Source: an uncultured Acidobacteriota bacterium (GTDB taxonomy: Bacteria; Acidobacteriota; Vicinamibacteria; Vicinamibacterales; SCN-69-37). From it: 64,000 nucleotides of DNA. Shown in pieces: positions 18,546 through 21,773 of the stretch (positions are counted from its first letter, which is position 1; each line of letters begins with the position of its first letter). Made by a program: the position numbers and the translations under genes. The DNA lies in contig CAVVUL010000011.1 in NCBI GenBank assembly GCA_963751445.1, positions 289,023 through 353,022 of the forward strand, in the 5' to 3' direction. The notes under the pieces were generated by a model, which had not been told where the DNA came from, ran no database searches, and saw only the letters and a program-made list of their open reading frames with translations.

Positions 18546-19720
18546 ATGTCATCCCGCCTGTCGACGTTGCCGAGAGTGATCGCCGTCACCGCCGCGCTTG
18601 CCGGCCTGGCGCTTGCCGCCGGATGCGGCCGTAGTGGATCATTGGCCCCGGAGCCGACGATCAAACCCCGACTCACCCAGGTGCCGTTCGAACGCACGCC
18701 GGACGGCCAGCTCGTGGACATCATCACGCTGCGCAACGGCAACGGCATCGAGATGACGGTCCTGACCTACGGCGGGGTCATCATGTCGCTCCGCACGCCG
18801 GATCGCACGGGCGCGCTCGACGACATCGTCCTGGGCTTCGACGACCTCAAGTCCTACATCGAGAAGTCGCCGTACTTCGGGTGCCTGATCGGCCGCTACG
18901 GCAACCGCATCGCCAAAGGCAAGTTCACGCTGGACGGCCAGGGCTACACGCTCGCGACCAACAACGGCGTCAACCACCTGCACGGCGGCGTGAAGGGCTG
19001 GGACAAGGCCGTCTGGGGCGTTCGACGCGTTTCAGCACGCCGACGGCGTCGGCGTCGTGCTGACCCACACCAGCAAGGACGGCGACGAGGGCTACCCGGG
19101 CACGGTGAAGGCCAAGAGTCACCTACACGCTCACCGAGAAGAACGAGCTGATTGTCGACTACGAGGCCACGACCGACAAGGCGACGGTCATCAATCTGAC
19201 GCAGCACAGCTACTTCAACCTGGCGGGCGCCAAGGCCAACGACATTCTCGGCCACGAATTGATGCTGAACGCGGCGCAGTACACGCCGGTGGACGACACG
19301 CTGATTCCGACCGGGCAGATCGCGCCGGTGGACGGCACGCCGTTCGATTTCCGGACGTCCACGGCGATTGGCGCGCGCATCAACGACAAGAACGAGCAGC
19401 TCACGCGCGGCAAGGGCTACGACCACAACTTCGTGCTGACGCGAACCGGCACAGGCCTGTCCGAAGCCGCGCGCGTCGTCGAGCCGATCACGGGGCGGAC
19501 GATGACGATCGCCACGACCGAGCCGGGGATTCAGTTCTACTCAGGCAATTTCCTCGACGGGACGCTGAAGGGCAAGGGTGGGCGCGTGTATCCGAACCGG
19601 TCCGGCTTCTGTCTGGAGACGCAGCACTACCCGGATTCCCCGAACCAGGCCAACTTCCCGACGACGACGCTGAAGCCCGGCGAGACCTACAAGACGCAGA
19701 CGGTGTTCACGTTTAAGTAG
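18546..19720 (+). pseudogene. galM: Aldose 1-epimerase (galactose mutarotase) lipoprotein, at least two frameshifts (~19020, ~19115)
   Basis: MSSRLSTLPRVIAVTAALAGLALAAGCG (lipobox) ..GNRIAKGKFTLDGQGYTLATNNGVNHLHGG lies in ORF 18453..19151. The middle piece ..[19 protein letters not shown].. lies in ORF 19057..19716. The C-terminus ..[13 protein letters not shown]...[36 protein letters not shown] lies in ORF 19259..19720. Confidence 0.85.
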
Positions 19721-19804
19721 GGGACGGGTCTCAACTGTGGAAAACTCTGTGGACTTTGTCGACAAAGTCCACAGAGTTTTCCGACAGTTCGAGACCCGTC
19801 CCCT
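19719..19804. repeat. ~86-bp palindromic element, copy 1 (probable bidirectional terminator / REP- or MITE-like element)
   Basis: AGGGGACGGGTCTCAACTGTGGAAAACTCTGTGGACTTTGTCGACAAAGTCCACAGAGTTTTCCGACAGTTCGAGACCCGTCCCCT. The arms are near-perfect complements centred on GTCGAC. It overlaps both convergent stop codons (galM TAG 19718-20; AKR stop 19803-05). Confidence 0.85.
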
Positions 19805-20792
19805 ACCACCGCTGGTGCACGTGCGGACGGATGAGACGGTCGTACACGTCGCGCGCGGCGGCCATCGTCGCCGCATCCAACGGCGGGAGCGCAGCGGCGG
19901 CGACATTATCCCGCACCTGAGCGGGCGTCTTCGCGCCGGGGATCGCGCACGTCACCTCGTCCCACATCAGGATCCATCGCAGCGCGAACTGGCCGAGCGT
20001 GGCACCGGCCGGCACGAGCGGCCGAAGCGCCTCGACCGCCGCCAGTCCCACGTCGTACGGCACACCTGAAAACGTCTCGCCTTGATCGAAGCGCTCGCCG
20101 TGCCGATTGAAATGACGGTGGTCGTCGGCGGCGAACGCCGACGATGCGGAGAGGCGGCCGGTCAGAAGCCCGCTGGCGAGCGGCACGCGAGCGATGATGC
20201 CGACACCGGCGCGCGCCGCCTCCGCAAACAGCGTCTCGGCCGGCTTGATCCGGAACAGATTGAAGATGATCTGGACCGACTGCACGTGTGGATGCCGCAG
20301 CGCCCGGCGGGCCTCATCCACGGTCTCGACGCTCACGCCATAGTGGCGCAGTTTCCCCGCCGTAACCAGATCGTCCAGCACCCCGAACACCTCAGGCCGG
20401 TCGTAGACGTCCGGGTGCGGGCAGTGGAGCTGGAGGAGGTCGATCGCGTCCGTGCGGAGGTTCTTGAGGCTCGCGTCAATCCAGACGTTCAAATTCTCGC
20501 GCGAATAACCGTCCGCGGCCTGGACCGGCAGCTTCCGCCCCGCTTTGGTGGCGACGTGAATCGTGTCGCGCGGACGCTCGCGGCGCAGGCGCGCGACGAG
20601 CCGTTCGCTGCGGCCGTCGCCGTACACGTCGGCCGTGTCGATGAAGTTGACGCCGGAGTCGATGGCCGCATGCAGCGCGCGCATCGACTCTTCGTCGTCC
20701 ACCGCGCCCCAGAAACCGCCGATCGCCCATGCGCCGAGGCTGATCGGCGAGACCAGCAGGCCGGTGCGGCCGAGCGGACGCCGATCGTTCAT
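19803..20792 (-). CDS. Aldo/keto reductase
   Basis: Start MNDRRPLGRTGLLVSPISLGAWAIGG..FIDTADVYGDGRSE..LLQLHCP..; a typical AKR (YghZ/Tas-like) pattern, intact at 329 aa. Its ATG overlaps the upstream stop (ATGA 20792-20789). Confidence 0.9.
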   Translation of the reverse strand: MNDRRPLGRTGLLVSPISLGAWAIGGFWGAVDDEESMRALHAAIDSGVNFIDTADVYGDGRSERLVARLRRERPRDTIHVATKAGRKLPVQAADGYSRENLNVWIDASLKNLRTDAIDLLQLHCPHPDVYDRPEVFGVLDDLVTAGKLRHYGVSVETVDEARRALRHPHVQSVQIIFNLFRIKPAETLFAEAARAGVGIIARVPLASGLLTGRLSASSAFAADDHRHFNRHGERFDQGETFSGVPYDVGLAAVEALRPLVPAGATLGQFALRWILMWDEVTCAIPGAKTPAQVRDNVAAAALPPLDAATMAAARDVYDRLIRPHVHQRW

Positions 20793-21679
20793 CCCCACAG
20801 CGACCGCGGATACACGCCGCGCGCGGTGAGATCGACCAGGCCGGACATGACTTCGGCCTTGTCCTCCTGATAGGTCAGGCCGAACCACGGCCCGGGCGCT
20901 TCCTGGGCGCGAACTTGGAGCGTGCCTTCCGCGATCAGTTCGTTGATGACCTCGGGTAACAGGAATTCGGTGTCGGGCGACCCGGCACCGTCCCGCAGAA
21001 ACGCCTCGAACTTCGTCCCCAACAGCGAGAACAGCGACGGCGGGAAGACCCAGAAGTTCATGGACACGAGCTCGCTGCCGTCGAAGCTGACGGACGCGTG
21101 CCGCCCGGCCGCCACGAGGCGCTCGCCCTCTCGCGCGATGCCCATCACTTCCTCGAGGCGCGTGACACGTCCGTCGCGCGCCTGACACCACCCGCGCTTC
21201 ACGGGGCCGTACGGCGACAGCGTGCGATCGAGCCGCATCGCGACGACGCTGGCGACGCCGCGCGCGCCCGCCAGATCCGCGGCCTCGGCGCCCAGTCGAT
21301 ACGCCTCCGCACCGTAGAAATCATCCGCGTTCATCACGGCAAACGGCGTCTGCACGACGTCGCGCACCGTGAGCACGGCCTGGCCTGTCCCCCAGGGCTT
21401 CGTGCGGCCCGCCGCCGAGAATCCCGCGGGAATGTCGTCGAGCCGCTGGACGATCCAGGTCGTCTCGATCGCGCGTCCGACCCGGGCCGCCAATTGCCTG
21501 AACTCCGGTTCCAACTCCGCCCGGATGATGCAGACCGCGCGGTCAAACCCCGCGCGCTTCGCGTCGAACAGCGCGTACTCCAGCAGCCATTCGCCCTGCG
21601 GCCCGACGGGCGTCGTCTGCTTCGGCCCGCCGAAGCGCGACCCCGCGCCGGCGGCCATGATCACCAGTGTCTTCGACAT
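20789..21679 (-). CDS. Sugar-phosphate nucleotidyltransferase family protein
   Basis: Start MSKTLVIMAAGAGSRFGGPKQ (G-rich NTP-binding loop of NTP_transferase enzymes), ..KPWGTGQAVL..VMNADDFYG... Intact at 296 aa; substrate unknown. Confidence 0.7.
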   Translation of the reverse strand: MSKTLVIMAAGAGSRFGGPKQTTPVGPQGEWLLEYALFDAKRAGFDRAVCIIRAELEPEFRQLAARVGRAIETTWIVQRLDDIPAGFSAAGRTKPWGTGQAVLTVRDVVQTPFAVMNADDFYGAEAYRLGAEAADLAGARGVASVVAMRLDRTLSPYGPVKRGWCQARDGRVTRLEEVMGIAREGERLVAAGRHASVSFDGSELVSMNFWVFPPSLFSLLGTKFEAFLRDGAGSPDTEFLLPEVINELIAEGTLQVRAQEAPGPWFGLTYQEDKAEVMSGLVDLTARGVYPRSLWG

Positions 21680-21690
21680 CGTGTGATTGT

Positions 21691-21773
21691 AGGGGACGGG
21701 TCTCAATTGTGGAAAACTCTGTGGACTTTTTCGACAGAGTCCCCAGAGTTTTCCACAATTGAGACCCGTCCCC
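21691..21773. repeat. ~83-bp palindromic element, copy 2
   Basis: AGGGGACGGGTCTCAATTGTGGAAAACTCTGTGGACTTT..AGAGTCCCCAGAGTTTTCCACAATTGAGACCCGTCCCC. The arms are almost identical to copy 1. It lies between the GH20 3' end and the nucleotidyltransferase start. Confidence 0.85.

Follow-up and report, generated by a model that had tools for sequence, protein, structure and literature searches.

Twin palindromes in a Vicinamibacterales genome belong to a family of hairpin-forming intergenic repeats with a DnaA-box motif in each arm

Small palindromic repeats are well studied in Proteobacteria but hardly in Acidobacteriota, which are among the most abundant soil phyla. Here we examine two closely similar palindromes, E1 and E2, in a stretch of 64,000 nt (the window; positions 289,023 to 353,022 of contig CAVVUL010000011.1, assembly GCA_963751445.1) from an uncultured member of the Vicinamibacterales (Acidobacteriota), together with the repeat family to which they belong. 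The closest described systems are the repeats associated with two groups of tyrosine transposases. Repetitive extragenic palindromic (REP) sequences and their hairpin-forming doublets (REPINs), which accompany the REP-associated tyrosine transposases (RAYTs), are extragenic and dispersed; they occur as singlets, as inverted doublets making one long hairpin, and as clusters, often follow genes closely, occasionally contribute translated tails to proteins, and are more alike within a genome than between genomes (Bertels and Rainey; Nunvar; Di Nocera et al., 2013, PMC3733652). The RAYT-like TIRYT genes (tyrosine transposases associated with terminal inverted repeats, TIRs) are flanked by long inverted repeats, many with GGGGWSAS; some of these repeats are moderately abundant families that occur as dimers or clusters, and a distinct acidobacterial group exists (Di Nocera et al., PMC3733652). 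Quentin et al. place the TIRYTs in subclass 2.1 of the TnpA_REP-like proteins, some with a C-terminal helix-turn-helix (HTH) resembling Bac_DnaA_C (DnaA domain IV), HTH_23 or HTH_28; the flanking GGGG[AT][CG]A[CG] repeats were said not to resemble DnaA boxes, and the role of the HTH was left open (PMC6006769).

The family described here fits this known kind of palindromic element. It shares all of the above features of REP/REPIN sequences, but its unit is longer and modular (blocks of 13 and 12 nt), its arms hold a DnaA box, it has no conserved GTAG/CGTC tag at family level (although GTAG occurs at 3/4 element ends in the window), its copy number looks modest, and no RAYT was found nearby. With the TIR repeats it shares the terminal GGGG[AT][CG], the moderate abundance, the dimers and clusters, and the occurrence in Acidobacteria, while differing in the perfect DnaA box of its arms and in a G at position 7 of GGGGWSAS. 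Other systems share fewer features. The end of Tn5/IS50 contains a host DnaA site beside transposase-binding bases (PMC3347997); it thus also has a DnaA site within an element end, but Tn5 belongs to the DDE elements, duplicates 9 bp of its target, and has one box per end and ends that do not form one continuous hairpin. The Correia/NEMIS, ERIC and RPE repeats are likewise palindromes (70-150 bp) beside genes, can supply promoters or terminators, and in the case of RPEs extend reading frames, whereas the family here lacks TA or any other target duplication, is unrelated in sequence and belongs to a different phylum. Consensus DnaA boxes are also grouped outside oriC in datA and DARS of Escherichia coli and in the DnaA-box clusters of Bacillus subtilis, but these are unique loci, not a palindromic repeat that is dispersed and has a second conserved block.

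E1 and E2 are palindromes of 82-84 bp (E1 core, GGGG...CCCC, at 19720-19803, or 19717..19806 including the terminal GTAG/CTAC; E2 at 21689..21774, core 21692-21773) that are 91-94% identical, and a 66-nt direct repeat (19717-19782 versus 21689-21754) is 94% identical between them. Searching the window with the arm pattern gave 3-4 matches, solely in E1 and E2, where shuffles predict 0.00-0.01. An earlier note, made from the sequence of this DNA, had described twin palindromes with a common arm, richer in AT than their surroundings, and a perfect 24-bp core in copy 1. All three observations are confirmed: E1 and E2 are the only copies in 64 kb, their GC content is 0.55 and 0.52 (0.68 for the window), and the 24-bp core is part of a larger perfect palindrome of 44 nt at the centre of E1 (19739-19782). 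The outer arms of E1 carry two 1-nt indels, and the arms of E2 (41 nt each) are 93% complementary. On each strand of each copy, the predicted RNA fold has an energy of -70 to -79 kcal/mol (z -14.5 to -16.5; for E1, -78 to -79 kcal/mol and z -15 to -16.5).

Each arm contains two conserved blocks, here termed the G-box and the A-box. In E1, the left G-box GGGGACGGGTCTC (19720..19732, plus strand), a block that is almost invariant across the 133 arms of the family, is followed by the left A-box TGTGGAAAACTC (19736..19747, plus strand), the reverse complement of which, TTTTCCACA, is a DnaA-box consensus. The 44-nt palindrome holds a genome-specific inner stem (CTCTGTGGACTTTGTC/GACAAAGTCCACAGAG), and the right half consists of an A-box, GAGTTTTCCGACA (19774..19786, plus strand), in which the DnaA-box match is broken by a 1-nt insertion, and a G-box on the minus strand (19791..19803). 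E2 has the same layout, with the left G-box at 21692..21704 and the left A-box TGTGGAAAACTC at 21708..21719 (both plus strand), the right A-box GAGTTTTCCACA at 21746..21757 (plus strand), and the right G-box at 21761..21773 (minus strand).

The two palindromes are members of a dispersed family. When 185,579 species-representative genomes were scanned with an exact pattern, 7 loci were recovered from 6 metagenome-assembled genomes (MAGs), all of them Acidobacteriota/Vicinamibacterales; a looser pattern recovered 86 more from metagenomes of soil and rhizosphere and none from viral contigs, for a total of 93 loci (loci, these and others, carry the prefix L below). From these, 72 inverted doublets were extracted, 67 of which are non-redundant. 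The consensus of 133 arms reads (t)A(A/G)G-GGGACGGGTCTC (the G-box), a linker of 3-5 nt, TGTGGAAAACTC (the A-box), and a variable centre; in the position matrix, the 13-nt and 12-nt blocks are almost invariant, and the linker differs between copies yet is complementary between the two arms of one element. Elements are 41-135 nt long, mostly 74 or 82-85. Variants include a long form with an extra outer A-box pair (8/66 elements), single units made up of A-box, G-box and inverted A-box (L007, L043, L068), arrays (L009, L023, L040, L085), half elements, a type II arrangement with the A-box in reversed orientation with respect to the G-box (GGGGACGGGTCTG-TTTTCCACAGATC), and variant G-boxes, of which L076 has GGGGGTCAGAGCCC. 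In some elements the centre contains a second, unrelated palindrome, GAAAACGACCTCTGAGGT...ACCTCAGAGGTCGTTTTC (L026, 1812-1870; L035, 7071-7129; L039, 568-650), and these nested loops appear to be one hairpin repeat inserted into another. A search of the whole window against Rfam returned no family for the elements (a permissive search gave only sub-threshold eukaryotic miRNA hairpin models), and the G-box string has no match in 8 million full texts. The family is thus apparently an undescribed set of hairpin-forming intergenic repeats restricted to the Vicinamibacterales, and the suggestion of a REP/MITE-like dispersed element (MITEs being miniature transposable elements with inverted repeats) is supported by its loci in MAGs and metagenomes, its intergenic position, and the absence of E1 from orthologous loci described below.

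The symmetry of the hairpin is maintained. In an alignment of 60 sequences from which interiors were removed so that only arms remained (A1), each of four linker pairs had changed on both sides in 8-25 of the sequences, with up to four pair types; 84 double-change cells were observed versus 27.6 in column shuffles, and 0/500 shuffles gave as many. When the partner columns were shifted by 1-3 positions, pairing fell from 92% to 34-57%. In four loci with an element at the same place beside a protein that is 73-93% identical (L006, L026, L035, L069), the linker is GATC or GCTC, altered in both arms. Because linker changes are compensated between arms, symmetry has been preserved, either by selection on the hairpin or cruciform or by the mode of copying.

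Genes around the elements were identified by Pfam in the window, where GH20 (21703-23913), a nucleotidyltransferase (NT; 20789..21679; PF00483/PF12804, NTP-transferase) and an aldo/keto reductase (AKR; 19803..20792; PF00248, E 3.5e-63) lie on the minus strand, and the aldose 1-epimerase gene galM (18453-19720) faces them on the plus strand. Read in the direction of GH20, the order is GH20, E2, NT, AKR, E1 and the opposed galM. The NT stop overlaps the AKR start (ATGA at 20789-20792), as the earlier note had proposed in describing translational coupling. Two relatives, L095 and L097 (GH20 86 and 83% identical), have GH20, a type II element, NT and the opposed galM, with AKR absent. In L096 and L094 (GH20 81 and 77% identical), GH20 is followed by an opposed GH31 gene, NT, AKR and the opposed galM, and in L099 and the P0125 locus (AKR 82-84% identical) the order is NT, AKR and the opposed galM. 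The order NT-AKR-galM is an old one.

At the AKR/galM junction, no family element is found in four of these loci: the spacer is ~5 nt in L096, 20 nt in the P0125 locus, and 40 nt of unrelated sequence in L094, and in L099 it holds an unrelated AT-rich palindrome of ~110 nt (5046-5165; CACTTGTCACACATGAAG...CTTCATGTGTGACAAGTG). Since E1 is absent from these related loci, it is a gain in the lineage of the window and is not simply conserved in place. The closest AKR orthologue (L098, 88% identical) lies on a short-read contig that stops 5 nt past the AKR stop (1920-1927), a break of the kind expected from a repeat, which leaves the junction there unreadable; in practice, such elements interrupt assemblies of short reads and lead gene callers astray.

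The 3' junction of GH20 has a different history. A family element is present there in the window, L095, L097 and L094, and remnants only in L096; L094 has a second, degenerate element on the far side of GH31. The E2 junction is an older site that has been occupied repeatedly. The element at the E2 position in L095 and L097 is of the other subtype, with the A-box inverted (type II). E1 and E2, in turn, share 91% identity from end to end, and this extends to the centre, which differs in all other elements; outside the pair, the highest identity to another element is 82-86%, with a median of 75% between loci. This likeness, together with the other subtype in the nearest relatives, points to recent copying or conversion within the genome. 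The element also accompanies local gain and loss of genes (GH31, AKR). The GH31 gene of L094 has family elements on both sides (8147-8217, 10555-10660), and the window (21689-21774), L095 and L097 have no GH31 and a single element at the GH20 3' junction. This absence is consistent with a deletion by recombination between the two flanking repeats.

Across the family, elements are nearly always intergenic (17 between convergent, 17 between tandem and 11 between divergent genes; genes were called with a crude GC3-based caller, for which stops are exact and starts approximate). In about one third of arms, the gene end facing the element has its stop 0-2 nt from GGGACGGG, and these abutting stops are TAG or TAA in 21/22 cases versus 115/248 for other genes in these loci (Fisher p = 5e-6). 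This is most simply explained if element ends read TAG/TAA from outside, such that a gene entering in frame is terminated; since they do, elements often supply or replace stop codons, as for galM and AKR in the window. Copy 1 was said to fit exactly between two convergent stops and to overlap both, and it does: the G of the galM stop (TAG, 19718..19720, plus strand) is the first base of E1, and the G of the AKR stop (TAG, 19803..19805, minus strand) is its terminal base on the minus strand. The galM product ends in TFK in the window and in TF(G)xK in its orthologues, and AKR orthologues (L098, L099, L094) have the same final Trp as the window AKR, followed by TAA or TAG.

At E2 the gene has instead run into the element. 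The end of E2 that faces GH20 is CTGGGGG rather than TAGGGG, and because this TA is missing, GH20 reads 23 codons into E2; its tail, GGRVSIVENSGDSVEKVHRVFHN, lies entirely within E2 DNA (21703..21774, minus strand; 23 codons plus TGA at 21705-21703). The earlier note had placed copy 2 between GH20 and the NT start with the last GH20 residues encoded by the element, which the reading frame bears out, and the deposited GH20 protein contains the tail. Some 40 GH20 orthologues end in ...APPRRGRG plus 0-5 amino acids, without the 23-residue tail, which is therefore specific to the window; E2 has displaced the GH20 stop codon. The elements therefore have concrete effects on genes: they create stop codons, add a 23-residue tail to GH20, and may form a promoter (see below).

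We consider that E1 and E2 are REPIN- or TIR-repeat-like non-autonomous elements of this Vicinamibacterales hairpin family, probably moved by a RAYT/TIRYT-type transposase, and assign this reading a probability of roughly 0.55. In the proposed mechanism, an HUH tyrosine transposase of the RAYT/TIRYT type, supplied in trans, would copy elements within the genome, probably as a single-stranded hairpin. The transposase end would be the G-box, and the A-box would be bound either by the DnaA-domain-IV-like HTH of the transposase or by host DnaA acting as a cofactor. E1 is a gain specific to this lineage and squeezed in between the stops of AKR and galM, while the NT-side end of E2 and the TACAAT next to it may provide a promoter from which NT is transcribed as a leaderless mRNA. 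Confidence in the description of the family is high; in mobility by a Y1 transposase, which would explain the family by analogy with the systems above, it is moderate.

The G-box resembles the GGGGWSAS ends of TIRYT genes, and the arms combine this block, starting GGGGACGG, with a perfect DnaA box. The variant G-box GGGGTCAG of L076 matches GGGG[AT][CG]A[CG] at 8/8 positions and equals the ends at plasmid TIRYT genes. Among four plasmid-borne TIRYT genes found by tblastn, three have GGGGTCAG or GGGGACAG ends (GGGG[AT][CG]A[CG]) on both sides, and the Skermanella gene (L100) has copies upstream only. The repeat is AAAAGGGGTCAGACCCC in R. rubrum and GGGGTCAGAGC in Iodobacter, where the upstream copy is preceded by TGTGAATAA, a DnaA-box match; GGGGTCAGAGC also occurs in the L076 variant, which is identical to the Iodobacter and Skermanella TIR core. 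The end in a P. aeruginosa plasmid, GGGGACAGATcTATTTTCCCTAC, follows the pattern GGGGACAGAT(C/T)TATTTTCCCTAC and has the GGGGAC-N7-TTTTCC spacing in common with the type II arms GGGGACGGGTCTGTTTTCCACAG, such that plasmid TIRYT ends of the form GGGGTCAGAGC or GGGGACAGAT-N3-TTTTCC come near the L076 variant and the type II arms. In that plasmid (L102; NZ_CP116719.1, 540-660 and 1395-1430), the TIRYT gene is flanked by AAAGGGGACAGAT(C/T)TATTTTCCCTACTCTAATTTTC, and the upstream copy of the repeat is tandemly duplicated.

Several observations weigh against transposition of this kind. The main G-box GGGGACGG matches GGGG[AT][CG]A[CG] at 7/8 positions, with G at position 7. A six-frame open reading frame (ORF) motif search of ~540 kb around the elements found no Y1/HUH transposase gene or motif. 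The Koribacter TIRYT aba2776 (from the supplement of PMC3733652), used as a query, retrieved close homologues only, and the homologue loci that were inspected (L104-L107) belong to unrelated genomes of ~55% GC without this G-box. The TIRYT domain check covered five sequences from the supplement of the paper, three plasmid-encoded sequences, and 120 homologues by precomputed domains; in Pfam, the nine scanned sequences have Y1_Tnp only, without Bac_DnaA_C. A direct target-site duplication is absent in 53/66 elements, and the rest have at most a self-complementary TA. Copy density looks modest, with one locus per 30-70-kb contig and 2 copies in the 64-kb window, and the strict pattern matches only twice on a MAG contig of 1.26 Mb and once on one of 3.9 Mb. 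Finally, elements stay at the same junction across relatives with proteins 73-86% identical, a persistence that is also compatible with selection by the host for a structural or regulatory role, as opposed to ongoing mobility. Because element loci have no Y1 gene, the homologues come from lower-GC genomes, and the scanned TIRYTs are Y1_Tnp only in Pfam, the TIRYT link is circumstantial.

The DnaA box in each arm is a feature not previously reported, and it makes the question of the TIRYT DnaA-like domain directly testable: the modular design bears on why some RAYT-like transposases have a DnaA-type domain when their flanking repeats lack a DnaA box. It is tempting, if speculative, to see in these elements the missing DNA partner of the DnaA-domain-IV-like HTH, or elements that recruit host DnaA as a transposition cofactor; we regard either as rather unlikely. 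If true, a mobile hairpin would have copied the host initiator site, seeding strong DnaA boxes over a GC-rich chromosome nearly without them, and its spread would be coupled to the control of replication initiation via DnaA titration, with adjacent genes, e.g., the NT-AKR operon, placed under DnaA-dependent promoters.

The A-box has the sequence of a consensus DnaA box: read on the opposite strand, TGTGGAAAA is TTTTCCACA, which fits TT[A/T]TNCACA. In the window, TTTTCCACA/TTWTNCACA occurs inside the elements only (3 matches versus 0.1-0.4 expected), and in 536 kb of loci 176/186 box occurrences lie no more than 70 nt from a G-box. DnaA binding to TTTTCCACA has been measured in Deinococcus, another phylum (PMC7988490), and by analogy DnaA may bind the elements in this lineage. 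In L084, which has one of the exceptions, dnaN, dnaA, rpmH and rnpA are in the classical order of an origin region (Pfam matches Bac_DnaA, Bac_DnaA_C, beta clamp (DnaN) and L34), and the 288-nt spacer between dnaA and rpmH holds ATTTCCACA, TTTTCCACA and TGTGGAAAA at 7019-7050, without a G-box; this DnaA was the only hit when six-frame ORFs of all loci were searched for DnaA domain IV. The same dnaA-rpmH region (6931-7217, on a Vicinamibacterales-like contig) is a candidate dnaA promoter or oriC segment. A further cluster in L007 (361-510), in the divergent intergenic region upstream of addB/addA-like genes, has ~7 DnaA-box-like motifs in 150 bp (TTGCACA, TTTGCACA, ATCCACA, TTCCACG, ATCCACA, TTTTCCACA, TGTGGAAAA), ends in a single G-box unit, and could be a DnaA-box cluster or origin-like site.

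These boxes raise the alternative that the elements are selected by the host for DnaA binding, with pairs or quartets of boxes titrating DnaA (as datA does) or putting neighbours under DnaA control, and that mobility is secondary. Such a role would account for the strict consensus match and its threefold recurrence beside dnaA, for the near absence of boxes outside elements, which would then form most of the chromosomal box pool, and for the retention of the A-box in either orientation to the G-box (type I versus type II), as for an independent protein site. The embedding of the L007 unit among box-like motifs points the same way, as does the fact that L094 and L096 have a TTTTCCACAG box upstream of NT even with the palindrome decayed. 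It does not account, however, for a 13-nt G-box that is just as invariant, for the compensated linker, for the symmetry of the hairpin or for the stop-bearing ends; the box assignment in this lineage is by sequence match, and copy number appears low in some genomes. We thus consider host selection as the primary explanation unlikely, while noting that it is compatible with, and not exclusive of, a transposase-borne REPIN- or TIR-like repeat. An operator shared by the two flanked genes for a dimeric regulator, as had been suggested, is not supported in that form, since the motif is genome-wide and not operon-specific; each arm does, however, hold a recognizable protein-binding motif, the consensus DnaA box.

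The elements could also act locally, as hairpins in RNA or DNA that are selected and immobile, forming bidirectional barriers to transcription or protecting mRNA 3' ends as proposed for REPs. Their great stability on both strands, the many copies directly after stops, including the 17 between convergent genes, and the compensated linker, which would indicate selected pairing, are as expected for such a function, and the different palindrome at the AKR/galM junction of L099 suggests that this site needs a hairpin. Mismatches compatible with G-U pairing also favour, by 24 to 11, the strand that the neighbouring upstream gene reads, a weak bias that includes loop positions and that hints at an RNA-level role after genes. 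On the other hand, no U tract follows either copy, and a terminator scan does not call the elements; 11 lie between divergent gene starts, a plain hairpin needs no two long invariant blocks, E1 and E2 are closer to each other than to same-position elements in relatives, E1 is missing from the four related loci, and single units and arrays exist. Selection for barriers or end protectors alone is therefore improbable, and the statement that these palindromes are more than a generic terminator is upheld by the lack of a U tract and the two invariant blocks per arm.

At E2, a different local activity is suggested. A sigma-70-like promoter match (21686..21715, minus strand) has its -35 hexamer, TTTCCA or TCCACA, in the A-box and its -10 hexamer, TACAAT (21691-21686), at the border of the element, 6 nt ahead of the ATG of NT (21679-21677), with the spacings TTTCCA-18-TACAAT or TCCACA-16-TACAAT on the NT strand. 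Sigma-70-like matches within 18000-24500 occur only in or at the border of E2 (3 versus 0.3 expected), and CCCC-TACAAT-N6/7-ATG is kept in L095 and L097, which suggests a leaderless NT transcript from a promoter at the E2 border. Across the family, a border TAnnnT is present in 8/46 arms facing gene starts and 6/63 facing gene ends, which is not significant, and the promoter idea is statistically weak. Confidence in any specific physiological role is low.

A classical MITE derived from an insertion sequence (IS) and mobilized by a DDE transposase, whether of Tc1/IS630 type with a TA target or of Tn3 type with GGGG ends, is very improbable. Terminal inverted repeats, a variable interior and a TA at the ends of 45/133 arms are what such an element would present. 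Nevertheless, direct target-site duplications are missing, as noted above, and the flanks extend the palindrome instead: GGGG...CCCC is preceded by A and followed by T, and where this is extended, the extension is palindromic and not a direct repeat. At family level, the end consensus over the 133 arms is t-A-[A/G]-G, and the preceding base is not conserved. Furthermore, linkers compensated between arms are not the product of independent decay of terminal repeats, and no DDE transposase or parent IS was seen in the fetched loci; the 212 neighbouring proteins include no transposase, and no recurrent family apart from mutually orthologous loci. The arm resembles Tn3-family ends (GGGG...GAAAAC), but the missing target-site duplication and the palindromic flanks speak against both the Tn3-end and the Tc1/IS630 MITE ideas. 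Resemblances to parS, attC and sigma-54 or ECF promoters do not fit the conserved blocks.

That the pair marks the ends of a mobilized NT-AKR cassette (integron attC-like or composite), or an operator specific to this operon, can practically be discarded: although two closely similar palindromes bracket exactly two translationally coupled genes, as the earlier note stressed in proposing cassette boundaries, relatives have NT-AKR-galM without an element at the AKR/galM end (L094, L096, L099, the P0125 locus), L095 and L097 have the GH20-side element but not AKR, AKR and GH31 vary independently of the palindromes, elements elsewhere are single and next to unrelated genes with no recurrent neighbour family, and there are no attC core sites and no integrase, the conserved blocks being unrelated to attC cores (RYYYAAC...GTTRRRY).

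The window has further features. The galM gene has two +1 frameshifts ~100 nt apart (near 19018 and 19117) and is spread over three frames; its C-terminal frame is nonetheless the one that stops at 19720, and, frameshifts aside, galM is 68-86% identical to the L094 orthologue along its full length. The split gene is either a recent pseudogene or the result of indel errors of long-read assembly, and L097, from a comparable assembly, likewise has split genes. A second pair of palindromes, unrelated to E1 and E2, is found at 4076-4148 and 4403-4497, whose arms, GAAAAGTCGAATCCGGGATTCTTTTTTCG, match perfectly (29 and 40 nt). These copies carry the 15-nt loop in opposite orientations, and both then run into the right flank CTGGCGAGCGCCCGCTACGCGACGG; the pair looks like another family of hairpin repeats or like a local duplication in which the loop was flipped. 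The sole Rfam match in the window that reaches the gathering threshold is a tRNA gene (26629-26712). At 62200-62380, short tandem repeats of the GGTTC/GGGTTCCAGGTTC type are followed by their complement (GAACC...), and similar GGACCCTGGACTCTGGAC repeats directly adjoin G/A-box elements in L006 (985-1015) and L011 (74-110).

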